Made by a program: the position numbers and the translations under genes. A stretch of DNA of 62,328 nt, counting the filler, from Chrysochromulina tobinii (lineage: Eukaryota), in assembly GCA_001275005.1 (NCBI GenBank). It is 5 parts of 5 records of this genome, joined end to end, with 100 filler letters (N's around TTAATTAATTAA, not from the genome) between each part and the next. Parts side by side here need not be neighbours in the genome. Positions count along the whole stretch, not along the records: positions 54,410 to 62,328 come from JWZX01001130.1; 4 more parts are not named here. One strand, given 5' to 3'. Positions 18,256 to 62,328 of this stretch are shown here, piece after piece; position 1 is the first letter of the stretch, and each line of letters starts with the position of its first letter. Below the pieces are notes generated by a model. That model searched no databases, was not told the origin of the DNA, and worked only from the letters and a program-made list of their open reading frames with translations.

Positions 18256-18355
18256 NNNNNNNNNNNNNNNNNNNNNNNNNNNNNNNNNNNNNNNNNNNNT
18301 TAATTAATTAANNNNNNNNNNNNNNNNNNNNNNNNNNNNNNNNNNNNNNNNNNNN
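18256..18355. other. Assembly linker (44 N + TTAATTAATTAA + 44 N)
   Basis: All-frame-stop 12-mer centred in an exactly 100-bp N block; identical at all four gaps. Confidence 0.98.
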
Positions 18356-18939: not shown

Positions 18940-19420
18940 CCCTTCGCTCTGTTCATGGCAGTTCAGACCACCGAGCCCTCTCTCCTCTCCTACGCCTTTG
19001 GGTGCGTCTCGATTGCATGCTGATAGCCTCTGAGCATCTGATGGCCTCTGATGGCCTCTCTAATTGAACCCCTCATCAGAATGACCACTGCCTCTATTGC
19101 GCCCCTCATCATCAGACGGACAATTCGGGCGAGGTCGACCTTAATGAGTTTCGTGCTGCGATGAACTTCAGTGTGGTCCGAGCAGGATAGTGGTCTGCTC
19201 CTCGCCTTACTGATTGCTTGTGATGGCCTCTGATGGCCTCTGATTGCTTGCCTCCCTCATCATCAGGCTGCTCTTCGCCTCACTGATTTGCCTCCCTCAT
19301 CATCAGAATACAGAAATGCTTTTTCGCTTCATTGACACCGACGGTAGCGGTGAGATTAGTTCCAAGGAGCTCAGCAAGCTGTTGCGGAATGGCGTTCCGA
19401 TGGAGGCGGATGAGGAGAAG
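18940..19420 (+). CDS. Spliced EF-hand protein fragment (exon structure partly resolved)
   Basis: Exonic TDNSGEVDLNEFRAAM (~19115-19165) and FRFIDTDGSGEISSKELSKLL (~19320-19385), separated by CTGAT-rich introns ending CCTCATCATCAG; donor GTGAGT at 19421. Confidence 0.55.
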
Positions 19421-20097
19421 GTGAGTGCCCTCTGATGTCCCTCTGAGTGCTATCTGAGTGCCCTCAGGGGAGTGCATTCTGATGACCTCTGATGGTCCCT
19501 GATTGCCTGCCTCATCATCTCAGGCGATTACCTGCGATGACCTCGGATGACCTCGGATGGCCTCTGATTGCTTGCCTCCTCATCCCAAGCCCTCGAACCT
19601 CTTCTTCGTCGCTGGTCAGAAGCCAGAGGTCGGGATCGCTTTCGCCGCCACACTCGCCACCGCCTCCCTCGCCGCCGCCCCCTGCGCCTTTACCGCTTCT
19701 CGCCGACTTCTCCCTCATCTCCGTCACAACCAAAGTCACCACCACCGCGCCCACGCCGCCGCCACCACCATCGCCGCCGCCGCCCTCGCTGCCACCGCCA
19801 CAGAGAGTATCTGCTATGTAATGTCGTGTATCATGCCTGCGTGAGGTCGTGGTCGGGCGTGGTGTCTTGGACAAATAAGTTTCATAATGGCCTGCGATAG
19901 GGCAGAGGGTGACTCCAATTGAGGGAGACCGACCGGTAAGGATTCCCCGCGGACGAGCCGAAGCCGCGACCTCGCAGGGCATCGTAGTGGTTGAAACATG
20001 AAAGCCCCAGGGGGAGTCGTCAGTCGAACGGACTGCCAGCCCGCAGCCGCGTGGTGCTTAGACCAAACAGGATCACTCGCACACTCAACTCACCCGT

Positions 20098-24692: not shown

Positions 24693-24792
24693 NNNNNNNN
24701 NNNNNNNNNNNNNNNNNNNNNNNNNNNNNNNNNNNNTTAATTAATTAANNNNNNNNNNNNNNNNNNNNNNNNNNNNNNNNNNNNNNNNNNNN
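24693..24792. other. Assembly linker
   Basis: Same 100-bp N/TTAATTAATTAA/N block. Confidence 0.98.
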
Positions 24793-37278: not shown

Positions 37279-37378
37279 NNNNNNNNNNNNNNNNNNNNNN
37301 NNNNNNNNNNNNNNNNNNNNNNTTAATTAATTAANNNNNNNNNNNNNNNNNNNNNNNNNNNNNNNNNNNNNNNNNNNN
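37279..37378. other. Assembly linker
   Basis: Same 100-bp N/TTAATTAATTAA/N block. Confidence 0.98.
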
Positions 37379-40300
37379 CGGCCTCGTCCTGCGCCGACTG
37401 GCGCTGCGCCGCGCGCTCGGCCGCCGCCTCGGCCGCCGCCTCGGCCGCCGCCGCGCGCTCGGCCGCCGCTTCGGCCGCCGCCTCGGCCGCTACCGCCGCC
37501 TCGCAAACGCGACGCCCCTGCGCGAGGATGCGCTGAGCGGCAGCGGCGTTCGGTGAGGCCGCGGCGTCAAAGTCCAAATTAGGCAACGCGGCTTCAAAGT
37601 CCAAATTAGGCAACGCGTCGGCGGAGCGCTCCGGGGCGGGGATGGCAGAGATCAACTCGGCGCGCGCCCTTGCCGCCTCCGCCCGCGCCGCCGCCGCCTC
37701 CGCCCGCGCTGCCTTCGTCTCCGCTCGGGCTGCCTCTAATTCCGCTAATTCCACACCATCAACGGCCTTTGCCCGGCTCGCTTCTTCCCGCGCAGCCTGC
37801 AATTCAGCGTGCGCGGACTGCCATTGCAAGACCAATTCCGAGTGCGCGGATTGCAATCCCGAGTGCGCAGATTGCAATTCCGAGTAGGCAGACTTCTCCC
37901 GTTGCTCGGCGTCGACGGTGGCCCTTTCGAGCTCGGACCTCGCCACCTGCCTAATTTGGGTCACCGTCTCGAGATCGGACCTCGCCGCCTTCAGATCCGC
38001 CCTGGCGTCCTCCAACGCACCCCTGGCCACCTCAGCTTCCGCCCTGGCCGCCCTCGCCTCTGCCTGTGCCGCATGCATGGCAGCCCGGGACTCATCCACT
38101 GCTGCCTGGGCCACGCCCCTGGCCTGCGCCACCGCCGCCTCCGCCTCCGCCCTCGCCGCCTCCGCCTCCGCCCGCATCGCCTCCGCCTCCGCCCTCGCCG
38201 CCTCCGCCTCAGCTCGCGCTGTCTCAAGTATCTCAATCGCCGCTTGCCTATTTAGGAGCGCCGTCTCGAGCGCCGCCCTTCGTTCCTCGAGGGCGCGCAG
38301 CTGCACCTGATGAGGGAGACAATCAGAGGTCATCCGCCTTCCTCGAGGGCGCGCAGCTGCATCAGCTCATCGCTCGCAAAGGAGCCATCAGCGCCAATCA
38401 GCGCCAATCAGCGCCAATCAGCGCCAATCAGCGCCAATCAGCGCCAATCAGTGCCAATCAGCGCCAATCAGCGCCAATCAGTGCCAATCAGCGGCCCTCA
38501 TCAGCCCTCATCAGCCCTCATCAGCCCTCATCAGCCCTCATCAGCGCACCTCCTCCTCGCTCTGCCGCCGTTCCAAACAGGCTCGCTCCGCCGTGGCCGC
38601 CTCCAACGCCCTCTGCGTGCTCTCCAAACCAATGCGAAGCTCCGCGGACTGCTGCCGCTGCTCCGTTAATTGCTCCGTTAATTGCTCCGTCAATTGCCGC
38701 TGCTCCGTTAATTGCTCCGCGGATTGCTTGCGCTCCCGTCCCAACTCGGACCGGGCCTCGTCTAATTGTGAATGCAATTGGCCTAGTTGCGACTGGGCCA
38801 CGCCTAATTGCGAGTGCAATTGGTCGAGCTCCGCGTGCAGCTCAACACAACGCGCATCGGACAGCTTGAGACCGGTAAGGAGGTTCCGACACTCGACCTC
38901 CAACAATGCCATCGCCTCCTTTTGGGTTGCTTCTGATGAGGACAGCAATTGGAGGCCATCAGAGGCACTCAGAGGCCATCAGAGGCCATCAGAGGCCATC
39001 GGAGGCAATCAGAGGCACTCGGAGGCACTCGGAGGCCATCAGAGGCACTCGGAGGCGCTCGGAGGCCATCAGAGGCTATTGGCGGCCATCATGGGCAATC
39101 AGAGGCCATCAGCAGTTACCCGTCACGGCCGCCGCCATGCGCAGCTCGTTCTTTTCGGCCTCCGCCTCTTCCAAAGCCGCCTCCGCCGCCGCCACCGCCG
39201 CCTCCGCCTCCGCCCTCGCCGCCGCCACCGCCGCCTCCGCCTCCGCCATCGCCGCCTCTGCTGCATCTCGAGCTGCGAGCATGGCGCGTTCCGCCCCCGC
39301 CTGCGCCGCCGCCACCGCCTCATCCGCCTCTGCCTGCGCCTCCTCCACCATCGCCTCCGCCTCCGCCCTCGCCGCCTCGGTCGCCTCTCGCACTGAGGCG
39401 ACGACCGACTCGGCCTCCGCCCGCGCCGCGCCGACCTGCGCGTCCGTCTCCGCCATCATGGTCTCGATGGCGGCCTCCGCCTCCGCCTGAACCCTCGCCA
39501 CCGCCGCGTGCAGCGCCTCGTGCAGCTCAACACAGCGCGCTTCGGCGGCCTGGAGGCTCGAGTACCTGCCCAAGCAATCATTGGCGCAATCAGCGACGCA
39601 ATCAAGGACGCAATCAGGCGGCCTGGAGGCTCGAGTACCTGCCCAAGCAATCATTGGCGCAATCAGCGGCGCTCCGCCGCGGCAATCCGCTCAGCACAGC
39701 GCGCGTCAGAAGCCAATCTGAGGGTTCGATTCACACGCGCCGTGTCGAGCACTCACAGCTTTTGACACTCGAGCTCCGACGATGCCATCAGACGCAATCA
39801 GATGCAATCAGACGCAATCAGCGCCGTGTCGAGCACTCACAGTTTTCGACACTCGAGCTCCGACGATGCCATCGCATCTTGCTGCGAGGTTCGAATCTCG
39901 ATCGCCTCTCTCCGGACAGATTCCATCTCCGCCTGCGCAGATTCGATCTCCGCCTGCGCAGATTCCCTCTCTGCCCTCGCCTCCTCCACCGCCGCCTCCG
40001 CCGCCGCCCTCGCCGCCACCGCCGCCTCCGCCTCCGCCCTCGCCGCCGCCACCGCCGCCTCCGCCTCCGCCCTCGCCGCCGCCACCGCCGCCTCCGCCTC
40101 CGCCCTCGCCGCCTCCACCGCCGCCTCCGCCTCCGCCACCGCCGTCTCGTGTTCACAGAGAGCCAATCGCATGGCGGTCACGGCCGCCTGCGCCGCCCGC
40201 GACAGCGCCTGCGCCTGCGCTGCCTCCTGCTGCGCGTACGCTGCCTCCTGCTGCGCGTGCGTCGCCTCCTGCTGCGCCTGCTGCACCTGCATCTCTGCCG

Positions 40301-43300
40301 CCGCGAGCGCCGCCTCTGCCTCTTCGCGCGCCGTGCTGAGCGCCGCCTCCGCCTCGCGCCGCGTCGTCTCGAGCTCTGCCCTGTACCTGATGAGCGAGGC
40401 CATCCGAGTTGGAATCAGAGTGGCAATCAGAATCGCAATCAGAGTCGCAATCAGAGACGCAATCAGAGTCGCAATCAGCCGCAATCAGCCGCAATCAGCT
40501 CATTACTTGAGGGAGAGAGTCTCTCGCAGCTCGCGCTCGGCCATGAGCGACGCCGTACCCGACTCTCCGACGGCAAGCTCGAGGGCCGCCTGCGCCGCGG
40601 CCTCGCGCTCCGCGATCTCGTGCGCGAGGTGCGATCTCCACTCGAGCTCCGACTGCTGCCGCTGCTCCGTCAATTGCTCCGTTAATTGCTCCGTTAATTG
40701 CTGCCGCTGCTCCGTCAATTGGTGCTCGAGCCGCGAGATCGTCATCTGGAGCTCGAGCCGCGAGCTCGTCATCTCGTCGAGATCTCGCGCCGCGCGCTGC
40801 TCGCGCTCGCTCGCCCCATGACGCTCGCGCTCGAGCGCCGTCCTGAGCGCCACCGCCTCGGCGCGCGCCGTCCCGAGCGCCGCCGCGGCCTCGGTACGCG
40901 CCGTCTCGAGCGCCGCCTCGGCCTCGCGCGCCGCCGCCTCGGCGCGCGCCGTACCGAGCGCCGCCGCGGCCTCGGCTTCGTCACACTCGCGCCGCCAGCT
41001 CATCGCGAGCTCGCGCGAGTGACGAACCTTGTGTTCACACTGCGCCTCGAGGCCCCCGATCTCGGCCGCGAGCAGCGAGCTCGCGATCTGCGCCGCGGAG
41101 CTCACGGCGCCCAACTCGGCGCGCGCATCCTCGAGCTCCGCCTGCCTATGTTGGAGCGCCGTCTCGAGCGCCGCCTCCTCGAGCGCCGCCTCGGCCGCGG
41201 CGGCGGCGAGCTGCTCGGTCATCGAGCGCCGCGCCTCCTCCGCCTGCCGCAAGCGACGTCCATCAGTGGCAATCAGTGGCAATCAGTGGCAATCATCATC
41301 GAGCGCCGCGCCTCCTCCGCCTGCCGCAATCAGTGACAATCAGTGGCAATCAGTGGCAATCATCAGTGGTCATCAGGGACGCCATCTGGGGTCATCAGTG
41401 GCGCCATCAGAGGTCATCAGTGGCTCATGTCACAAGGCACGACTGCACGCTTCACATTCACACCCGCTTCACATTCACGCTTCACGTTCACACCTGCTTC
41501 AGCTGGCGCGCGCTCTGTCGCTCGGCCGCCTGCATCGCCTCCGAATGCTCGATCAACGCCTGCGCGACTGCTTCGCGCGCTTGAGCTCGCACGAGCTCCA
41601 CCTGTGGAAACGTGCAAGGGCGCCGTGGTGAGCACATGCACGCCGCTTAAACCAACGGGGCGCCGTGGCGAGCACTTGCAGCGCGCCGCTCCTCGGGCCT
41701 CGGAGGGAGGGGAGGGGAGGGGAGGGGCAAAAAGGGGGGCGTGCGCGGGAGCGCCGTCGCGAGCGCCACCTCGTCCGCGGCTCGTGACGAAACCCGCGCC
41801 GTCGCGAGCGCCGCCTCGTCCGCAGCCTGCCGTTGCGCCTGCGCGACGGCCTGGCGCGCGTGCTCGTGGGCGCTCGCGACGGCGCTCGCGAGCCTCGCCG
41901 CGTCGCGCGCCTGCGCCGCCCTCGCGCCCACGTGTGACGAAACCAGCGCCGTCTCGAGCGCGCACGCCTCGCGCGAGAGCGCGCGCAGATCGGATCTCAG
42001 CCTCGCGAGATCGTCCACGCGCTTCGACACCTCGGCCGCCGCCTCCGCCGCGGCGCCCTGGGCAGCCTGCGCTCGCGACAGCGCTGCGTTGGCAGAGGCG
42101 GTCGCGGCGGCGGCATCGGCGCTCGCTGTGGCCGCTGCAGCTCTGGCCGCCGTCGCCTCTGCCGTCGCGGCGACCCTTGCCGCCGCCTCTGCCGTCGCCT
42201 CCGCCTTCGCCTTTGCCGCCGCCTCCACCGCCGCCGCCGCCGCCTCTTCCGCCGCCGCCGCCGCCTGCCTCGCCGCCGCCGCCTCGGCAATCGACCGAGA
42301 CGCGAGTGCCTCGGCCGCCTCGCGCCGCGCCGTCTCGAGCGCGCGCTGCTCGAGCGCCGTCTCGAGCTCCGCCGCGTCCGACAGGCGCTCGGCACGGCGC
42401 GCGCTCGCCTCGGCCGCGTGCCGTTCGCGCTGAGAGGCGATCTCCGCGCGCTGAGATGCAATCTCGCGCTCGAGGCTCGCGATCCGCCTCTCGCCCGCCA
42501 CGACGCTCGCGCTCAACGCGACGCGCTCAGCTTCGGCACGACCGACGACGCCGGCGGTGCTCGCCGCGGCGGCCGCCTGCACGCGCGCCGGGGTGAGCAC
42601 CAAGCCGTCAGTTGACACTCGGATGGTCATCCGTGGTTATCAGTGGTCATCAGAGGTCATCAGTGGTCATCAGAGGTCATCAGTTGACACTCGGATGGTC
42701 ATCAGGTGGGGCCATCAGATGGTCCTCACAGGTAGGGCAATCAGATGCTCGTCATGTCGCAATCACCTGCATGGCCTTCGTGTGCTCCTCGAGCGCCGTG
42801 TTGAGCGACTCCGCCTCGCTGAGTTGCTGCGAGAGCGAGCGCACGTGCGCCATCTCGGCGCCCAGCCGCTCCTCGAGCGCCGTGTTGAGCGACTCGGCGT
42901 GCGCCATCTCGGCGCCCAGCCGCTCCTCGAGCGCCGTGTTGAGCGACTCGGCGTGCGCCATCTCGGCGCGCAGCCGCTCCTCGACTGAGCGCACGTGCCC
43001 CTCCAAGATCTCGCGCTGAGATTGCAGCTCGCGCTCGAGATTCTCGCGCTGAGATTGCAGCTCGCGCTCGAGATTCTCGAGCTCGGCAGCATGCCTCTCC
43101 TCGGCAGCTCCGAGAAGCTTCTGCTGCTCCGAGATTGCAGCTCGGAGAAGCTTTTGCTGCTCCGCCTCGGCGGCCGCCACGTCCGCCTGCCGCGTCGGGT
43201 GGCAGTCGGAAGTCATCAGTAGTCATTACGGGTAATCATGAGTCATCATGAGTCATCAGGGGTCATCAGGAGTCATCAGAGGTCATCAAGAGTCATCAGA

Positions 43301-46300
43301 GCTCATCAGTCGTCATCACCTGGCGGAGGATCTCGGCCTCTCGGGAGTCATCAGAGGTCATCAAGAGTCATCAGAGGTCATCAGTCGTCATCACCTGGCG
43401 GAGGATCTCGGCCTCTCGGGAGTCATCAGAGGTCATCAAGAGTCATCAGAGCTCATCAGTCGTCATCACCTGGCGGAGGATCTCGGCCTCTCGAAGCAGT
43501 TGGGAACGCTGCATCTCAGCCGCCGCGCGCTCATCGCTCAGCCGTTGGTGATCAGCACGGCGCTCGTCGCCCAGCTGCTGCAGCCGCTCCTCGAGGGCCA
43601 TCACCTGTGTCATCAGGCGTCATCAGGCGTCATCAGGCATCATCAGGCGTCATCAGCCGCTCCTCGAGGGCCATCACCTGTGTCATCAGGCGTCATCAGG
43701 CGAGCACTCAGGCGAGCACTCAGGCGGGCACTCAGACGCGCCCAATCAGAGGGTATGATCATTGAGAGCACTCAGGGTTTGTCAATTGGGCGCCCACTCA
43801 CCATCGACTGCTCAGTCTCGAGCTGCTCGAGCAGCGCATCTCCCCGCGCGCGCGCCGTGCTGAGCGCCTCGGCCGCGCTGGCCGCCGCCTCGTCCGCCGC
43901 GCGCTGCACGTGGGCGAGCCGCTCGGCTGCCTGGGCGGCCGCTGCCTCGTGTGCCTCCCTCTCTGCGCGCACCTGCAATGAGAGACGCAATCAGGCGCAA
44001 TCAGGCGCAATCAAGCGCAATCAGAGACGCAATCAGACGTCCTCAGTGTCCAATCCCTCAGAGTTGGTTATTGGAGACCATCGGAGCGATCAGGGCTCAT
44101 CATCATCGTTCATCATCCTCATCAGGGTTCATCATCCTCATCAGTGCTCATCCTCCTCATCAGTGCTCATCATCCTCATCAGGGCTCATCAGCCTCATCA
44201 GGGCTCATCATCCTCATCACGTACCAGGCGTTAAGCTGCCTCCTCGCTCGCAATCAGAGACGCAATCAGAGACGCAATCAGAGACGCAATCAGAGACGCA
44301 ATCACGTACCAGGCGTGAAGCTGCCTCCTCGCTCGCTTCCAATTGGCGCTCAGCCGCGTGCCTCTCCACCTGTGGGGAAGTGGATGGGCGCCGTGGTGAG
44401 CACTGGGGCGCTCAGCCGCGTGCCTCTCCGCAATCAAACGCAATCAGAGGGGCGATCAGACGCAATCAGATGCAATCAAAGGGGTTCGTCACCTGCAGTC
44501 GATGCTCGGCAGACACCTGATGGCCATGCAGCTCGACCTCCGCCGCGCGCAGCCGGCGCTGCAACGCCGCATTCTCCTCGCGCGCATCGTGCAGTTGCTC
44601 CGTGACGATCTGGGCGCGATCTCGATCCGCCGCGCCTTGCCCACGCAGCCTGGCAATCTCCTCCTCCGCCGACGCGCGCGCATCGTCACGTTCATGCCGC
44701 TGCCATCCGAGGAGTCATCAGACGTCATCAGAGGTCATCAGAGGTCATCAGTGGTAATCAGAGGTCATCAGAGGTCATCAGAGGTCATAAGTGGTCATCA
44801 GTGACGCCATCAGCGAGGCAATCAGACGCCATCTGCGAGGTTCGTCACCTGCTGCCCGAGGAGCTTGCTCAGACGCAATCACACGCCAATCAGAAGCAAT
44901 CAGACGCCATCAGTGGGGTTCGTCACCTGCTGCCCGAGGAGCTTGCTCAGACGCAATCACACACCAATCAGGCGCAATCAGACGCAATCAGCGAGGTTCG
45001 TCACCTGCTGCCCGAGGAGCTTGCTAAGACGCGCCTCGGCACGCGCCTCAGTCTCCGCCGCCGCCGCCTGTGTCAGGCTGAGCTTCTCCTGCAATTGACG
45101 AACCTGCTCGAGGAGTGCCTTCTGATGAGGGACGCAATCAGAGGCGCCATCAGAGGCGCCATCAGAGGCCATCGGCGGCCATTGACGAACCTGCGCCTGG
45201 CAGTGCTCGAGCTCGAGCTTGAGATCACAATCAGAGGCAATCAGAGGCCATTGACGAACCTGCGCCTGGCAGTGCTCGAGCTCGAGCTTGAGATCACAAT
45301 CAGAGGCAATCAGAGGCCATTGACGAACCTGCGCCTGGCAGTGCTCGAGCTCGAGCTTGAGATCACAATCAGAGGCAATCAGAGGCCATTGACGAACCTG
45401 CGCCTGGCTGTGCTCGAGCTCGAGCTTGAGATCGCGCAGCTCGCTCTGCGCCTGGGCGCTCTGCGCTTGCATCTCGTGCTGATGAGATTGCATCTCGCGC
45501 TGATGAGATTGGACCTCGAGCAGCCGCGCCTGCGCCATCGGGGCAGATGCACTCTCAGATGCACTCTCAGATGCACTCTCAGATGTAATCAGATGCACTC
45601 AGATGCACTCTCAGATGCAATCAGATGCACTCTCAGCCGCAATCAGCCGCAATCAGCTGCACTCAGATGCACTCAGGCGCGCTCAGGCGCACTCAGGCGC
45701 ACTCAGCCGCAACCGCACCTGCGCCTCGGCCGCCTGCTTCTGCACCGCGCTCAACTCGGCGCGTCGCTGCTGCGCCTCCACCTGCGCGTCCGCACGCGCC
45801 GAGTTGAGCGCGGCCGTCGCGCTCAGCGCCTGCCGGCGCGCCGCCTCGAGCGCGGCCTCGAGCTCGCGCCGCGCCGTGTTGAGCGCCTCCTCGTGCTCGC
45901 GTTTCGCGCCTTCGAGCTGACGCGCCGTGTTGAGCATCGCCTCCCTCGACGCCTCCGCCGCCTCCGCCGCGGCCGCCTCGAGCGTGCGTGTCGCACGACG
46001 GTGCTCGGCGTCGCGCTGGGTGAGGGCGAGGGAGGCGGCCGAGGCGGCCTGGTGCGCGGCCGTCGCGCGCGCCTCGGACGCCTCCAGCTCCGCCCGAAAC
46101 GCCGTCTCGAGCGCTCGCCTTTCCGAGGCGACAGCTGCCTCGGCGGAAGTCAGCCGCGCGCGCAGCCGCACGAGCTCCTCGCGCTGTGCGAGATCGAGCT
46201 CGTCCGCGGCGCGCAGCTGCGCCTCGTAGTGGTACTCGGCTTGCTGGCCGCTCGCCTGCCCGATCGCGGCCAGCTCCTCGAGATCCGCAATCTCCGGGTT

Positions 46301-46618
46301 GAGCACGCCGAGACGCTCAAGCGTGCCGCGCTCCGCGTACTCGGCGAGCGCGCTGAGCTGCAAGCGCAGCCGCTCCGCCTCGGCAGCGGCGTTCTCGGCG
46401 CGCCGCCGGTAAATGTTGGCGTGCGCGACCGCCGCGCTCACGTCGTCGTCGGCGTGGATGAGCTCCAGGGTCAGCAGCGACTGGCGCGCGCGTGAGCGGC
46501 ACTGCGCCGCCTCGGCCGCCTCGGCAAGCTGCATCGAGAGCGACTGCTCATCCTCGAGCCGCGCCGCGAGGTGCTGCTCCGCGTACGTTGTGTAGCTGGT
46601 CGGCGTCTGCATGTACAT
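37379..46618 (-). CDS. Very long Ala/Glu/Arg-rich coiled-coil protein with >12 introns, 3' end in the gap
   Basis: Successive minus-strand coiled-coil exons (AEAEAAVAAAR, EQLTEQ repeats) separated by GT-AG introns, e.g. 39119-38933 and 38549-38307. Confidence 0.8.
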
Positions 46619-46865
46619 GACCGCCTCAGCCGTACGGCCGACTCAGCCGACGACCGCCGGGGGGAAGTGGCCGGAGATGATCGATTGAAGGAGAGCACTG
46701 TTTGCGGAATGTGTGTGTGAATGTGAATGTGTCGTGTGAACGTTAACACGACAGACGCGACAACCGGTGCTACGGCACTGTTGTGTCTGTGTGACTTCTA
46801 TAACACGGGATTGCTCAGCGCAACGCGAGACTTAACAACTCCTCAGAGACATCTTCCCGGCCTGC

Positions 46866-48411
46866 TCACCTCCGGAGCACCCTCGCCACATTCGCCGGCC
46901 CACTCACAAAAGGGTGCACGCGCGAGCCGTCGCCCGCGATCATGTGCGCCAGAGCCTTGCCAACGCCTGAGCACTGCGGCATGCCATGCCCGCAAAAGCC
47001 CGCGCCCACCCAGACGCGCTCGCGCACCGCGCCCACGAGCGGCCTCTTGTCGTGCGTGAACCCGAGCACGCCCGTCCACTCCGCCTCGATTTGAATCTCG
47101 CCCAAGCGCGGGAAGCTCGCGCGCAGAAAGCGGCGCAGGTAGGCGCCCACGACGGCGCTCAGCGTGCGGTCGTCCGTGCTGCCAACGGCCGCGCCCGGCT
47201 CGAGAGCGCGCGCACCGCCGAGGCAGAGCCGATTGTCGGGACGCCTGATGAGGAGGCCCATCAGCCGCAATCATTTCGCAATCATTTCGCAATCATGTCG
47301 CAATCAAGTCGCACTCAGCGGTACTCCGCGGCATTCAGTCGCACTCAAGCGCACTCAAGCGCACCGAGTCGCAATCAAGCGCAATCTAGCGCACTCAGTC
47401 GCACTCAGTCGCAATCAGTCGCACTCAGTCGCACCGGATCATGTACAGCTCGCGAGCACCCCGCTCTGAATCAATCGACATTCCCCCCACTGGCCACACG
47501 GCGGCCGCGGGCACAGGCGCCGTCATGAGCACCTGGTTGCGCACCGGGTACAAGTGCTCGCGCAGCTCGGGCAATATCTCGGCGGCCCAGCCGTTCGTAC
47601 ATACCACGACGGCGCGCGCCGTCACGGCGCCTCGGTCCGTAACCACCACCGCAAGAGGCGCGTCGTCGTGGTCGGCCACCGCCGCCGCGTTAGCCGCCGT
47701 GCCCGCCGCCGCCGCCGCCGCCGCGACGGCGCCGCCCGCGACATCGGCAGCGTCGCCGACGCGCAGCACGCGCACGGGGGCGAACAGCGCGGCGCCCGAG
47801 GCCCGCAGCAGCGCCGCCGCCACCTTCGCAGGGTACATTTGCTTGGCGCCCGCGTAGACGGTGGCTGCCGAGAAGGCAGGCGACTGGAGATTCTCTTCGC
47901 ACTGCGCGGCGTCCCACGCGGGTGTGTCACCCCAGTCCTCCTCCTCCTTGGCGAGCTCCGGGTCGCGGTCGGTGTCGTGGTACTCGACGTCCACCTCGGG
48001 CGCGCGGCGATCGAGAGCGGCGGCCCCGCCCGAAGTCAGATCGCATTCGATGCCCTCCGCTTCGATGAAGGCCACAAGGTCCGCCACCGTGTCGCACTCG
48101 AACTCGGAGCTCGGGTTGGCCCATAGATGGCCGCCGTTGCGACCCGTCGCGCCGCCGCACAGGCAGCGTGCGTCGAGGACGATGCTGCTCCTGCCGTAGA
48201 GCTTCTGGAGCCAATACGCGGTGGCACATCCCGTCATGCCCGCGCCCACGATGAGCACGTCGGCAGTCGTGGGCAGCGCGGTCGACGCCGGTGGCGCGAG
48301 GTCCGGGGGCAAGTGTTGCAGCCACCACGAGCTCGTCGCGTCGGCGGTGATGGCCGAGGTGGGCGTGGCAACGGGGTCAAGCATGCCGGCGCGTTCACAC
48401 TTCAACTTCAT
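46866..48411 (-). CDS. FAD-dependent oxidoreductase (DAO/PuuB-like), intron 47434-47245
   Basis: DVLIVGAGMTG, GATGRNGG, VVVCTNGW; exon 2 has WTGVLGFTHDKRPLVG and GFCGHGM. Confidence 0.92.
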
Positions 48412-52079: not shown

Positions 52080-53213
52080 TCAGGTCGTCAGGCCGCGCGT
52101 GAGCAACGGCGCCGCGATCGGCGAAGGACGCTGTGCTGGGCGCTGGGCGGGCCTGGCCCGGAGCCGCGCGCTCAGGACGGCGCGCTCGCCAAACCACATC
52201 GCGGCTGCCTCCTCGTTCACCGGCGCCACGTCGAACGCCGGGCGCTGCAGCAGCCCCGCGACGGCTCGCAACTGCTCCGAGACCAAAGCGACTGAGGAGC
52301 ACCGGCGAGCGAGCGCGCGGACGCTCACCTCACCTGTGGTCGCATCGACATTCGGGTGGAAGAGACCGACGGGCTGGCGCACGCGGATCCGTGGCAGCCC
52401 CTCGTGCGCCTCTGTGGGGAACTTGCCGCCCTCGTCGTCCTCGGTGCCGTGGGAGGTGCCATGGGAGGTGTCGGGCGCACTGCCATCAGCACTGCCATCC
52501 GCCGGATAGCGCATCGCGAGCTCGATCTCGAGGCCAGATACAGCCGAGCCATCGTTGGCGCAGGCGAGGCGCGCGCTCCAGCGGCTCCAGTCGCCTGGCG
52601 AGACTGGGCACGCCTGCAGCCCCTCACTCCCGCTCAGCATCAGCTGTTTGAGGCCCTCGCGCAGCCTGGCCACCGTGCACGCTGCCATGATCGGCCGGCT
52701 GGCCTTCGAGGCCTCCTCGCCGTCGACATTCGACTGGAGCCGGCGCAGCGCCGGACGACGACGCGGCGGCGATCCGTCCTTGTCGTTCTCGGCCTCACTC
52801 TCGGGCGACCACGACGAGCTCTGCGCAATTGGCGGAGGCTTCCGCATGACAGTCCTGGGCGTGAGCGGCGGTGCCGCTCCGCTGCTGCGCCGCCGGCGAG
52901 GCGTGGGCATCGCCAGGCTCCAGCGCGCGCAGACTGTGCGTTGGGCAAACGTGCGACGTGGATCACGCAGGCCATTGGCCTCGGCCGTTGTCATGCCGAA
53001 GTGCTGCGCCAGCAGCGAGGCCCACAGCCGCCCGTCGGAGAGCTGCGCAGCGCATTCCTTGGAGCACGAGGCGAGCGCAGCGAGCGCTGACGGATCGATG
53101 AGCTCGCTCAGATGAGGGGCGATGCCTCCGACCGCGAGCACGTCGAGCAGCGTGCACGGTGAGGCGTCGTCGAGCGCGAGAAGGAGCGGAGCGTCTTCTT
53201 CACCCGACGCCAT
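52080..53213 (-). CDS. F-box-like + UBC-fold (E2 variant) protein
   Basis: LIDPSALAALASCSKECAAQLSDGRLWASL is F-box-like; RLREGLKQL..WSARL..LPRIRV..FHPNVDATTGEVSV has Ser at the usual catalytic Cys position. Confidence 0.75.
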   Translation of the reverse strand: MASGEEDAPLLLALDDASPCTLLDVLAVGGIAPHLSELIDPSALAALASCSKECAAQLSDGRLWASLLAQHFGMTTAEANGLRDPRRTFAQRTVCARWSLAMPTPRRRRSSGAAPPLTPRTVMRKPPPIAQSSSWSPESEAENDKDGSPPRRRPALRRLQSNVDGEEASKASRPIMAACTVARLREGLKQLMLSGSEGLQACPVSPGDWSRWSARLACANDGSAVSGLEIELAMRYPADGSADGSAPDTSHGTSHGTEDDEGGKFPTEAHEGLPRIRVRQPVGLFHPNVDATTGEVSVRALARRCSSVALVSEQLRAVAGLLQRPAFDVAPVNEEAAAMWFGERAVLSARLRARPAQRPAQRPSPIAAPLLTRGLTT

Positions 53214-54309: not shown

Positions 54310-54409
54310 NNNNNNNNNNNNNNNNNNNNNNNNNNNNNNNNNNNNNNNNNNNNTTAATTAATTAANNNNNNNNNNNNNNNNNNNNNNNNNNNNNNNNNNN
54401 NNNNNNNNN
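54310..54409. other. Assembly linker
   Basis: Same 100-bp N/TTAATTAATTAA/N block. Confidence 0.98.
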
Positions 54410-55942: not shown

Positions 55943-58900
55943 ATGCCTCCTGGTCGACTCTGGCTTGTGGTGCTGGCGATTCGCGTGCATGGTGTGCACT
56001 CTGCACCAAACCCCACGTCGGCTCTGAAAGGTGAACGCCCAACGCCTCGCGCACACGTGCTCATGCAAAGCCCCGCTTGGCCCTGCGCCGGCACCGCCCC
56101 GCCTCCGGCACTCGGAGCGTGCAGGCCGCGGGCCGAGCCCGGAGAGCAGCGACTGCTCCATGCGCCTCGACTGTCCATCTGCCATGACAGCGCGCGACGC
56201 ATCGAGGGAGCCCTCTCGCCGTGCCGCCACCCCCAAAGATGGAGTCTCCCCGCTATCCTCGCCCACGGGCTCACCTTGCCGTGCCGTGTGCGCCCGTGCG
56301 TGTGTCTCTCGTGCGCGCAGCAGCGTCTGGAGAAGGTGCTCCGCCGCTTTCGCCGCCGCCACCACCGCCGCCTCCGCCGCCTCCGCCTCCGCCTCCTCCG
56401 CCGCCGCCACCGCCGCCATCGCCACCACCCACACCCCCCTCGATCCTCTCTCCTGCATCCGAGCGATTGACGCCGCCACCGCTGCTGCCCTCCTCCTCGC
56501 CACCAACTCCTGCAGACGAGCTTCACGGAAAGCGTCGGCTATTCGTACATCTTCACTTACCGTCCAGTCGCTCACCGCCTCCGCCGCTGCCGCCCCCGCC
56601 ATCGCCGCCTTCGCCGCCTTCGCCGCCGCCGCTGCCGCCCCTGCCGCCACTGCCGCCGCCGCTGTCGCCGCCACCGCCCCTGCCGCCACTGCCGCCGCCG
56701 CTGTCGCCGCCACCGCCCCTGCCGCCGGCGCTGCCAGTGCACACGTCGGCGGAGCTGCGCAACGCGATCACCTCGGGCACGGCGAGCGCCCTCTTGCTCG
56801 ACGGCGACACGCCGTTCGTGTTTGACACCTCCATCGCCACCGCCGTTGGGCCGACGGCGCTGCTCTTCAACCGCTCGGTGGTCCTCGTGGCCCCGGTGGG
56901 CAGAGTCGCCGTGCTCGATGCAAACGCGAATGCCACCAACCCGCGGCGCGTGCTCACCATCGTCGGCGCCGGCGTCGTCGTCGAGCTGCGCGGCGTGGAG
57001 CTCACAGGCGGCTTCTCCACCGAGTGGGGCGGCGGCGCGCGCGTCGAGGCCGGGTCCGAGCTGCGGCTCGTGCAGAGCGCGGTGCGCGGCTGCGTGGTGC
57101 GCACAGCGGGGACGGTGGCCGCGAGGGGCGGCGGCGTGCTCGTGAGTAGCGGCGCGAGGCTCACGGCGCTCGGCGGCTCGCGCGTGAGCAACAACACCGC
57201 CGTCTCTGTGAACGGGTACGCGTATGGCGGCGGGCTGCAGATCGGCAAGGGCGGCACGGCCGTGCTCTCGGCGAGCGCCGTTGAAGGCAACACCGCGCGC
57301 GCCGAGGGCAGCGGCAACGCCTACGGCGGCGGCGTGTACACTGACGGCAACCTCACCGCGAGCGATGGCGCGTCCATCTCGAGCAACACCGCCGTCTCCG
57401 TGAACGGGAACGCGCAGGGCGGCGGGCTGCTCATCATCACCGGCGGCACGGTCGTGCTCTTGACGAGCGCTGTCGACGGCAACACCGCGCGCGCCGAGGG
57501 CAGCGGCGGCGCCTACGGCGGCGGCGTGCTCACCGTCGGCACCCTCATCGCGAGCGACGGCACGTCCATCTCAAACAACACCGCCGTCTCTGTGAACGGG
57601 GGAGCGATCGGCGGCGGGCTGCTCATCTACCCCGGTGGCACGGCCGTGCTCTCGGCGAGCGCTGTCGACGGCAACACCGCGCGCGCCGAGGGCAGCGGCA
57701 ACGTATACGGCGGCGGTGTGCTCACCGTCGGCGCCCTCACCGCGCGCGACGGCGCGTCCATCTCGAGCAACACCGCCGTCTCTGTGAATGGGCAGGTGCA
57801 GGGCGGCGGGCTGCAGATCAACCCCGGCGGCACGGTCGTACTCTCGGCAAGCGCCGTCGACGGCAACACCGCGCGGGCCGAGGGCAGCAGCACCGCCTAC
57901 GGTGGCGGCGTGGTCACCGGCGGCGCCCTCACCGCGCGCGACGGCGCGTCCATCTCGAGCAACGCCGCCGTCTCCGTGAACGGGCAGGTGCAGGCCGGCG
58001 GGCTGCAGATCATCAACGGCGGCACGGCCGTGCTCTCGGCGAGCGCCGTCAACGGCAACACCGCGCGTTCAGAGGGCAGCGGCATCGTCAAAGGCGGTGG
58101 CGTGTACGCCGACGGCAACCTCACCGCGCGCGATGGTGCGTCCATCTCAAGCAACACCGCAGTCTCCGTGTCTGGGTACGCGTTCAGTGGCGGGCTGCAG
58201 ATCAGCACCGGCGGCACGGTCGTGCTCTTGGCGAGCGCGGTGGACGGCAACACCGCGCGCGCCGAGGGCAGCGGCAACGCCTATGGCGGCGGCGTGGTCA
58301 CCGGCGGCGCCCTCACCGCGCGCGACGGCGCGTCCATCTCAAACAACACCGCCGTCTCCGTGAACGGGTACGCGGTGGCCGGCGGGCTGGAGATCGGCGA
58401 GGGCGGCACGGTCGTGCTCTCGGCGAGCGTCGTCGACGGCAACACCGCGCGCGCCGAGGGCAGCGGCGACGCCTACGGCGGCGGCGTGGACACCGACTAC
58501 GGCGCCCTCACCGTGCGCGACGGCACGTCAATCTCGCACAACACCGCCGTCTCCGCGAACGGTTGGGCGCATGGCGGCGGGCTGGCGATCGGCGAGGGCG
58601 GCACGGCCGTGCTCTCGGCGAGCGCCGTTGAAGGCAACACCGCGCGCGCCGAGGGCAGCGGCACCGCCTTCGGCGGCGGCGTGGACACCGACGGCGTCCT
58701 CACCGCGAGCAATGGCGCGTCCATCTCGAGCAACGCCGCCGTCTCCGTGAAGGGGGAAGCGATCGGCGGTGGGCTGCAGATTGATAGCGGCGGCACGGTC
58801 GTACTCTCGGCGAGCGCCGTCGACGGCAACACCGCGCGCGCCGAGGGCAGCGGCAACGTCTACGGCGGCGGCGTGTTTGCCACAGGCACCCTCGCCGCGA

Positions 58901-61900
58901 GCAACGGCGCGTCCATCTCAAACAACACCGCCGTCTCCGTGAACAGGTACGCGGTGGGGGGCGGCGGGCTGGCGATCGATGAGGGCGGCAAGGCCGTGCT
59001 CTCGGCGAGCGCCGTCGTCGGCAACACCGCGCGCGCCGAGGGACGCGGCGACGCCAACGGCGGCGGCGTGCTCACCTACGGCACCCTCACCGCGAGCGAC
59101 GGAGCGTCCATCTCAAACAACACCGCCGTCTCCGTGAACGGTAGGGCATATGGCGGCGGGCTGGAGATCAGCTTGGGCGGCACGGCCGTGCTCACGGCGA
59201 GCGCCGTCGACGGCAACACCGCGCGCGCCGAGGGCAGCGGCAACGCCTACGGCGGCGGCGTGTACACTGACGGCGCCCTCACCGCGAGCGACGGAGCGTC
59301 CATCTCGAGCAACACCGCCGTCTCCGTGAACGGGCAGGTGCAGGGCGGCGGGCTGCAGATCAGCACCAGCGGCACGGTCGTGCTCTTGGCGAGCGCGGTG
59401 GACGGCAACACCGCGCGGGCCGAGGGCAGCAGCACCGCCTACGGTGGCGGCGTGGTCACCGGCGGCACCCTCACCGCGAGCAACGGCGCGTCCATCGCGC
59501 ACAACACCGCCGTATCCGTGAAGGGGCAGGCGGTCGGCGGCGGGCTGGAGATCGGCAAGGGCGGCATAGTCGTGCTCTTGGCGAGCGCGGTGGACGGCAA
59601 CACCGCGCACGCCGAGGGTAACGGCAACGCCCTCGGCGGCGGTGTGGACACCTTCGGTGCCCTCACCGCGAGCGACGGCACGTTCATCTCGCACAACACC
59701 GCCGTCTCCGTGAACGGGCCCGCGTATGGCGGCGGGCTGGAGATCGGCAAGGGCGGCACGGTCGTGCTCTCGGCGAGCGCCGTCGACGGCAATACCGCGC
59801 GTTCAGAGGGCAGCGGCGACGCCTACGGCGGCGGCGTGGATACCGACTACGGCGCCCTCACCGCGCGCGACGGCACGTCTATTTCGCACAACACCGCGGT
59901 CTCCGTGAACGGGCAGGTGGAGGGCGGCGGGCTGCTGATTGGTGAGGGCGGCACGGCCGTGCTCTCGGCGAGCGCCGTCGACGGCAACACCGCGCGCGCC
60001 GAGGGACGCGGCATCGCCGGCGGCGGCGGCGTGCGCACCGACGGCGCCCTCACCGCGAGCGACGGTACGTCCATCTCGCACAACTCCGCCGTCTCCGTGA
60101 ACGGGGGAGCGATCGGTGGTGGGCTGGAGATCGGCGAGGGCGGCACGGCCGTGCTCTCGGCGAGCGCCGTCGACGGCAACACCGCGCGCGCCGAGGGCAG
60201 CGGCAACGCCCTCGGCGGCGGAGTGGTCACCAAAGGCGCCCTCACCGCGAGCGACGGCGCGTCCATCTCAAACAACACCGCCGTCTCCGTGAACGGGGGA
60301 GCGATCGGCGGCGGGCTGCAGATCAACGAGCGCGGCACGGCCGTGCTCTCGGCGAGCGCTGTCGACGGCAACACCGCGCGTGCCGAGGGTAACGGCAGCG
60401 CCTTCGGCGGCGGCGTGGACACCTTCGGCGCCCTCACCGCAAGCGACGGCACGTCCATCTCGAGCAACACCGCCGTCTCCGTGGATGGGGGCGCGCTCGG
60501 CGGCGGGCTGCAGATCCACTCCGGCGGCACGGCCGTGCTCTCGGCGAGCGCCGTCGACGGCAACACCGCGCGCGTTGAGGGCAGCGACGTCGCTGCCGTC
60601 GGCGGCGGCGTGGTCACCAAAGGCACCCTCACCGCGCGCGACGGCACGTCCATCTCGCACAACACCGCCGTCTCCCTCCAGGGTGAAGTGATCGGCGGCG
60701 GCGTCACTGCCGCTAACATTGACGACATATTCGCCTGCGCGGTCGCGCTGAACGATACCTCCGTCCTCAACAACACGGCGCGCGCCGAGCGCGGCGCGGG
60801 CGCCGACGGCGGCGGCCTCGCGACCTTTTGCAACCTGACGGCGCGCAACGCGACGATCGTCGGCAACCGAGTGTTCGCCGCCAGCGGCACCTGCCGCGGC
60901 GGTGGCCTCTTCCACGCCGGCCGCCCCGCCCTCCTCTACGGCGGCGTCATCGACGGCAACGTGGCCATCGGCCGCGTTGCGTCGGGCTCCCAGGTCCTCG
61001 ATTGGCTCTGATGACCACTGATTGGCTCTGATGACCACTGATTGGCTCTGATGACCACTGATTGGCTCTGATGACCACTGATTGGCTCTGATGACCACTG
61101 ATTGGCCGCGTTGCGTCGGGCTCGCAGGTCCTCGTCGGCGCGCCGCTCGCCTACGTGCTGCCCGCGCCCCTCGGCCGTTGGTTCGACGGCGTGCGCCAGT
61201 GCAACCGCGCCTTGTGCCCGGCAGGCATCCAAGGTGGCGAGGTGGAGTGCGCGCTGCAGCCGTGCGACTTTCACGTCTTCGGCGACGAGGTCGAGGGCCG
61301 GTGGATCACCGTCGCGCTACCGGGGCCCGCCGACGGCGATGCCTACCCGCCGCGATGCCTCCCGGGCTCATATGCCGCGGGCGCCGACCCCGAGGCCGAC
61401 CAGAGCGGCCGCACCTGCTCCGGCCTCTGCCCCGCCGGCCGCGCGTGCTTCATGCCGGGCACGATCGCACCCGGCGGCGATGCGAGCGCCCTGCCTGCAG
61501 CCCCCGCCGGCATGGCCACGGCGCTCGGCGACGCCACAGGCCGGCCGTGCGAGGCGGGCTTCTACTCCAAGGGCGGCGCCGCCGACCGTTGCCAAAAGTG
61601 CCCCTTCAACTCCACTTCGGCATTAGGCGGCTCCTCGATCGACGCCTGCTTCTGCGAGCCCGGCTTCTTCGGCGCGGCCGGGGCCTGCCGCCCCTGCCCG
61701 CCCGGCCTGGACTGCGCAGCTGGGGCGGACCCTGTGAATGTGAATGTGCTACCAGGCTCGTGGCGGCCGAGCCGACGCGCGGCAGAGGCGCACGTGTGCC
61801 CGGGTGGCAGCCTCACGTGCGCCGGTGGCTTGTCTGCGGCCAACTTCTCCCTCGACGACCCCAGCACGTGCGCCCCTGGCTTGGCGGGGCCATACTGCTC

Positions 61901-62328
61901 CGCCTGCACGGATGCACAGAGCTATCTCGATGCGAGCTCACGCACGTGCCGCACCTGCGTGCAATCCTTCTCCTTCTTCGGAGCCATCGTCGGCAGCTTG
62001 GTGGGCGTCGCCGTCGCGTGCCTCCTTCTCGCCGGCTTCATGCACGATCCCGCCCTCCCCCTTCGCGATCGCATCAAGGGAGCCTGTTCCAATGGGAAGC
62101 GCGCCGTCACTGCCTCTCTTCTGAAATTGGGGAGCCACCCGCGCATCGTCGCCCTCCGCGCCGCCTCCGACTCGATCACCCTCCTCGTCAAGGGCAAGCT
62201 CCTCCTCGGCTTCGCCCTCGTCATGGCGCAGATGGGCGATGTGTACCAGATCCGCTACCCTCCAGGCTTCCAGTCCCTCACCTCCACGCTGTTCAGCCCG
62301 CTGAGGCTGCAGCTCTTCGGGTGGATCC
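55943..62328 (+). CDS. Giant cell-surface protein: signal peptide, Pro-rich stalk, 18 x ~64-aa Pmp/beta-helix-like repeats, Cys-rich region, transmembrane region (runs off the window)
   Basis: Exons 55943-56030, 56321-60993 and 61128 to the window end join in frame. MPPGRLWLVVLAIR signal-like N-terminus; xxGNTA...GGG repeats; CSGLCPAG/CPFNS..C.C..GF Cys motifs; FFGAIVGSLVGVAVACLLLAG TM segment. Confidence 0.88.
61001..61100 (+). repeat. Five perfect 20-bp units ATTGGCTCTGATGACCACTG inside intron 60994-61127
   Basis: Exact 20-bp periodicity. Confidence 0.97.

Follow-up and report, generated by a model that had tools for sequence, protein, structure and literature searches.

A likely break-repair-type intron gain in Chrysochromulina tobinii with a long exon duplication and a repeat-array filler

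Described routes of intron gain and the Chrysochromulina locus

The origin of the DNA of new introns is a long-standing question, and passages of PMC4202315 state that the source of most new introns is still unexplained. The same passages describe break-repair gains in Daphnia pulex (treated also in parts of PMC3443670) that are polymorphic for presence and absence within the species, with an insertion flanked by direct repeats, and young introns that were lengthened by later internal duplications; the repeats catalogued within these neointrons measure 4-17 bases. In the tandem genomic duplication model, as given in passages of PMC3443670 and PMC4974935, a segment is duplicated head to tail, the donor is taken from copy 1 and the acceptor from copy 2, and the coding sequence is unchanged; the potato tandem duplication crosses, in the part of its description used here, an existing intron-exon boundary. 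Introners, such as family 5 of Chrysochromulina sp. (passages of PMC9860276), recruit a target duplication as splice sites, and in the class 14 Introner of Polarella both splice sites come from an AGGH duplication (part of bioRxiv 10.1101/2020.10.14.339549); the portions of these sources considered describe duplications of 3-9 bp, multi-copy families and often inverted ends. According to passages of PMC12130899, families with homology from simple repeats or satellites were dropped from an Introner survey, so satellite-driven cases would be filtered out. A report of the build described below was not found for haptophytes in the literature as judged by titles and the beginnings of abstracts, with subscription papers and supplements outside that scope.

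The window, that is, the whole stretch of DNA analysed (62,328 nucleotides), carries near its end the following features of one gene, all on the plus strand.

56188..60993, plus strand: upstream open frame (start set stop-to-stop) with a proline-rich part and an extended run of ~64-aa Gly/Asn-rich repeats
60970..61000, plus strand: first copy of the 31-bp segment; its AG at 60992-93 closes the exon, and its GT at 60994 is the predicted donor
60994..61127, plus strand: predicted GT-AG intron of 134 nt that falls between codons; the final CTGAT adenine, at 61101, is 27 nt from its end
61001..61103, plus strand: inserted array of five 20-bp units plus ATT, two CTGAT decamers per unit
61104..61134, plus strand: second copy of the segment; it holds the predicted AG acceptor (61126-27), followed by the 7 bases with which the next exon begins
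61128..62328, continuing past the window end, plus strand: downstream exon, a Cys-rich region followed by hydrophobic segments

The sequence-only reading had described here a 31-bp repeat with one mismatch around five perfect 20-mers carrying CTGAT, and this was confirmed. The two copies agree at 30 of 31 positions, C60990 versus G61124 being the sole mismatch, and the 103-nt filler between them consists of five perfect 20-mers followed by ATT; no 31-nt repeat with at most one mismatch arose in 30 base shuffles of 60700-61700. The insert is pure array without a unique body, and no inverted ends were found on it. Excision of 60994-61127 fuses the ORF at 56188-61011 (1607 aa) with that at 61095-62327 (411 aa) to give ..GRVASGSQ/VLVGAPLAY.., again as claimed, though any direct repeat would do the same: because removing one period of such a repeat returns the original sequence, the restored frame is a consequence of the duplication and says nothing independent about splicing. 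Between 61000 and 61127 there is no AG other than that at 61126-27, and the 134-nt segment, if retained, brings 4-6 stops into each reading frame. CTRAY is the branch-point consensus, which the last CTGAT of the array presumably fits.

Comparison with the described systems indicated that the target shares with the Daphnia gains the within-species presence/absence polymorphism, the flanking direct repeats and the later internal lengthening, and differs from them in that its repeat is 31 bp long, supplies both predicted splice sites and surrounds a filler with a likely source in the same gene. As in the tandem duplication model, copy 1 gives the predicted donor, copy 2 the predicted acceptor and the coding sequence would be unchanged, but the copies do not lie head to tail, and the filler, 103 of the 134 nt, would supply length and branch-like sites. 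The AGGT-duplication route cited by the sequence-only reading stands as far as both predicted splice sites derive from the copies, and does not stand as a pure tandem duplication, since those 103 nt are non-exonic. The target is not an Introner by the length of its duplication or by its ends, with 31 bp, a pure array and no inverted ends against the Introner features given above. It is likely a break-repair-type intron gain with new features, namely the long repeat, the array filler and a named candidate donor. At this locus an allele lacking the insert can be set beside filled alleles at several stages, a candidate donor lies within 1.9 kb, and there are cultured-type assemblies on both sides.

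Alleles of the target site and the sister intron

An exact search for the 31-mer in metagenome data returned ten loci (L001-L010), which are read as alleles because each contig carries a single 31-mer site and the downstream DNA, where alignable, agrees at 95-99% across loci. Five of them (L002, L006, L007, L009 and L010) are empty, with one 31-mer copy and no array, so that the single-copy site which the earlier reading proposed to look for is present; the other five (L001, L003, L004, L005 and L008) are filled. Filled alleles carry 2, 3 or 5 units and up to four copies of the 31-bp segment (1, 2 or 4 across all alleles), with 0-1 mismatch between copies: L001 and L005 have three units each, L003 has four copies separated by 2, 2 and 3 units, L004, whose sequence is cut off, has two copies or more, and L008 is identical to the window and possibly not independent of it. 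The mismatch position is C in all five empty loci and G in every filled second copy, and filled first copies have C (the window type) or G. The same two junctions recur in all filled alleles, which points to one origin. An ordinary-intron remnant at the target site was found in none of the ten loci. The empty loci have one upstream haplotype (0 of 340 differences among them, 30-56 versus the filled loci), which occurs in none of the filled loci. At the protein level 25 proteins were examined; 16 do not cover the target site, seven are ORF calls that end in SQVLDWL-stop (filled) and two, P0002 and P0023, belong to other haplotypes and read through the site.

The product of the host gene is a large repeat protein that is Cys-rich in one part and also has hydrophobic segments; Pfam gave sub-threshold matches only, including a weak Ephrin_rec_like match in the downstream exon. 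The DNA is present in mixed-culture and freshwater sequencing runs, and together with the 90% clustering of a nearby protein with one from Chrysochromulina parva this places the host among the freshwater haptophytes of the C. parva/tobinii group. The number of ~64-aa repeats varies among L001-L010, the segment preceding the target intron differs at 30-63 of 340 bases between haplotypes, and one allele class is only 71% identical around the target site, with both protein ends common to other alleles. The gene looks like one for a surface protein under diversifying selection.

A second intron of the same gene carries the same array.

L008 5038-5179, ~1.9 kb downstream of the target and past the window end: sister intron, with the exon end duplicated around the same array

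The sister intron is found also in L001, L002, L003, L006, L007 and L010. The target insert and the sister intron of L008 have an exact 30-mer in common, the best match of the insert elsewhere in the window being 17 nt, and the unit CTGATTGGCT was found in none of the 219 other CTGAT decamers of the window. Since the sister array occurs in all seven loci that reach that point (in one with a mismatch) and the target is filled in three of the seven, the sister intron is the likelier donor; a more distant donor is possible, as the 30-mer count is limited to the window, the chief weakness of this assignment, and the RNA runs contain many similar arrays from other genes. At the target junctions the array unit and the exon share GGC on the right; that they have just a single G in common on the left counts against the template-switch reading. 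Microhomology-mediated template switching, or templated insertion, is marked by short shared junction bases, a nearby template, duplications and short inversions; the junction features here are similar, and the outcome at the target is, by prediction, a spliceable intron. The staggered break or template switch suggested from the sequence alone fits these junctions. The accompanying statement that no recognisable transposon is involved agrees with the absence of inverted ends, but the filler is not anonymous, as it matches the downstream intron array of the same gene, and CTGAT decamer arrays are the usual filler of introns in this genome.

Analysis of the sister intron revealed that in L001 the duplication measures 33-34 bp and lies across the donor of an ordinary intron, copy 2 continuing into a surviving 3' part. 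This 3' part is precisely missing in L002, L003, L006 and L008, which indicates that the same process also remodels old introns. The sister intron of L003 and L008 has an extra 69-bp duplication on the acceptor side, its donor is GT or GC depending on the allele, and its last CTGAT adenine is ~28 nt from the acceptor. The first 11 nt of the sister insert repeat its own end in inverted orientation (L008 5042-5052 and 5078-5088), and these arms are either a fold-back or tiny inverted repeats. The likeness of the two duplicated segments was considered as a guide to pairing and set aside: it beats 28 of 28 other 27-mers ending in AGG(T/C), yet 1097 of 5000 middle shuffles match its score.

In the ancestral-type allele, a single copy of the segment holds AG/GT. 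DNA synthesis would have switched from the exon to the array lying 1.9 kb downstream, taken up one to two of its units and returned to the exon at a point 31 bases further back, via the GGC common to array unit and exon. Selection would then have kept the event, with copy 1 turned into the donor, copy 2 into the acceptor and a CTGAT, the last of the array, at a distance of 27 nt from it, while slippage and unequal crossing-over would have changed the number of units and copies and would also recreate empty alleles. To this reading, an array copied from the next repeat-filled intron by a repair template switch and a whole insert that is likely spliced as a new GT-AG intron, we assign a probability of about 0.5. 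That the target is a real, spliced and recently gained intron, whatever the route, we consider quite probable.

The sister intron also bears on a different origin, in which target and sister would be two insertions of one mobile repeat (a truncated retro-type element or a tiny Introner) with target duplications of ~30 bp. Both duplications are alike in length (31 bp, and 33-34 bp in L001) and have AG/G at nearly the same offset, both introns rejoin at CTGATT/GGC, the inverted 11-nt arms bracket the sister insert, and long variable duplications with very short truncated insertions are known from Chlamydomonas LINEs and Penelope-like elements, according to passages of PMC9977147. The target insert, however, has neither inverted ends nor a unique body, the other arrays of the window differ in unit and match different neighbours, and selection for a working distance from branch to acceptor would give a similar AG offset as well; we regard a mobile repeat as rather unlikely.

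Splicing, polarity and age of the insert

Template-switch copying as proposed above includes splicing of the insert, for which the earlier reading had looked to junction reads at 60994-61127. Six distinct RNA runs were used, all as contigs, which break at the 31-mer repeats, and a contig bridging 60993-61128 was found in none of them. The only contigs that cross into the target array are two unspliced forms with a depth of 2-2.7. Immediately upstream of the target site the poly(A) run is without cover, and the downstream exon does have RNA contig cover; uncovered parts carry no information on splicing. An ordinary intron of the host gene is skipped at GT..AG in two of four runs (X16, depth 105.7; X19, depth 7.25). 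In X19 this contig is also free of the sister intron (142 nt); the X19 allele is untyped, and the sister-intron acceptor used may be an ordinary and not a copy-derived one. Runs X14 and X15 retain introns, including the sister intron. A loose contig end of X16 at L008 5040 was considered as a spliced sister junction and not counted, as it fits an unspliced inner copy too. The ordinary GT-AG intron at L008 4549-4689 contains a ~30-bp internal repeat whose number varies between haplotypes.

The missing bridge in all six runs, together with the low-depth unspliced contigs, would also be expected if the insert were inefficiently spliced and the filled alleles were null or encoded a truncated secreted protein ending in DWL-stop. 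The usual donor consensus is GTRAG, from which the donor GTCCTC is far removed. Against this, the contigs break at 31-mer repeats, the poly(A) run leaves the region just upstream uncovered, and X14 and X15 retain other introns too; filled alleles are moreover common and occur on many haplotypes. The downstream exon (1389 nt) has no stop or indel in any of the five haplotypes compared, and pairs of filled alleles differ there at 20-30 synonymous and 23-28 non-synonymous codons (365 and 1024 sites), giving a pN/pS of ~0.3-0.4, although this purifying selection could come in part from recombination with empty alleles. On balance inefficient splicing appears improbable.

To establish polarity, eight proteins were blasted; five align straight across the site and three were uninformative. 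The relatives that read through have identities of 71% around the site (P0067/P0068), 40% (P0069/P0087) and 38% (P0005), so the target intron is a gain, and an ancient intron position shared with distant relatives, the reverse case named by the sequence-only reading, is contradicted. These relatives appear to be genomic ORF calls, judging from ends that go out of frame where later introns lie. A tree built from 105 residues of the flank upstream was tried for polarity and rejected: the states change three times, as with shuffled labels, and two of ten branches are well supported. Empty and filled states are intermixed in it, with weak support.

Filled L003 and L001 differ from the window at 43 and 60 of 1194 positions (3.6-5%), while empty L002 and L006 are closer to it, with 24-28 of 1194 differences. 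As a polymorphism the target intron is common and occurs on no fewer than three DNA haplotypes, so that "newly born" is too strong, and the perfection of the array reflects a recent change in unit number (2, 3, 5). Some or all of the close empty alleles may be collapses and hence derived, and recombination together with collapse between the repeats can explain the mixing of empty and filled states. Of the description of the intron as newly born, the gain is therefore upheld and the freshness is not.

The nesting of close empty alleles among filled ones by distance would also agree with an older intron that gained junction duplications and lost its original parts, as the sister did, the empty alleles being secondary collapses; the L001 sister, with its duplication across an ordinary donor and a 3' part missing in four other alleles, provides a precedent. 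But in both copies the AG is followed by 7 coding bases of the next exon, so that this route would take two duplications plus two exact deletions, none of the ten loci has a remnant allele, and divergent alleles as well as relatives read through the site, all of which makes an older remodelled intron still less probable than inefficient splicing. Least probable by far is a duplication or an empty allele created by the assembler. Short-read assemblers can loop or collapse tandem repeats, and L008 may not be independent of the window, yet the filled junctions recur in other assemblies with different flanks (L001/L005, L003/L004) and in the seven ORF calls, and the empty loci have their own upstream haplotype and C where filled second copies have G, which clears the concern about misassembly raised earlier.

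CTGAT arrays and similar events elsewhere in the window

CTGAT arrays occupy many predicted introns of the window in sense orientation, with decamer and 12-mer arrays at 19020-19570 (plus strand) and 38200-47430 (minus strand), and a CTGAT spacing of 10 nt dominates (87 cases on the minus and 14 on the plus strand). Introns of Emiliania huxleyi are reportedly rich in 10-11-bp repeats. These repeats are not mentioned in passages of PMC2784329, and passages of PMC4580454 give about one intron per gene and contain no mention of intron repeats. The array pattern gave no matches in viral and prokaryote collections, a result of little weight.

A scan of the window for repeats adjoining arrays returned 14 rows: the target, eight duplications (one listed twice) and four array-internal repeats that were set aside. 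The scan for junction-spanning repeats suggested earlier, here on the window, yielded eight more cases, all in one neighbouring gene. All eight have a non-array part and lie in one coiled-coil-like gene (39617-45435, minus strand); they measure 24-53 bp, are present in 2-4 copies with periods of 69-85 bp, and each extends across a predicted splice junction, like the potato duplication. From their sequences, six of them resemble tandem duplications that extend into an array next to them, and two look like insertions, which are of the same build as the target.

44216..44336, minus strand: duplication of 36 bp spanning a predicted donor; between the copies, a 12-mer CTGAT array that differs from the adjacent DNA
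39737..39873, minus strand: duplication of 53 bp spanning a predicted donor; between the copies, a CTGAT array of 31 nt that differs from the adjacent DNA

The fillers of these events (at 44336 and 39873) have 24-nt exact matches elsewhere in the same gene. The inner copies of the neighbouring-gene duplications would form AG/GT sites, and stepwise splicing could be possible. The remaining arrays of the window have different units that match different neighbours; within the 62 kb, target and sister are two matching arrays in one gene, with none elsewhere.

The occurrence of the same build at ~10 junctions in two genes suggests a process and not an accident. Tentatively, Chrysochromulina might possess a genome-wide, transposase-free intron generator in which branch-point-like decamer arrays copy themselves nearby with duplications of 30-50 bp. 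If so, landings on AG/GT would make introns, landings at old junctions would remodel or replace them, and collapse would remove introns again, in an ongoing cycle of gain and loss that Introner surveys would filter out as satellite.

Several predicted introns end in a common non-array motif (GTGCTCACC.CGGCGC; 44363-44405, 41602-41640 and 42577-42603, minus strand) and several begin with GTGACGAACC or its near reverse complement; these are possibly another intron family. Four 100-base scaffold gaps (18256-18355, 24693-24792, 37279-37378 and 54310-54409), each with 12 bases between two stretches of N (where read, a PacI-like palindrome), are assembly padding and not biology. A ubiquitin-conjugating-domain protein is encoded at 52080-53213 on the minus strand, with PF00179 on its homologues and a 90% cluster that includes a Chrysochromulina parva protein.
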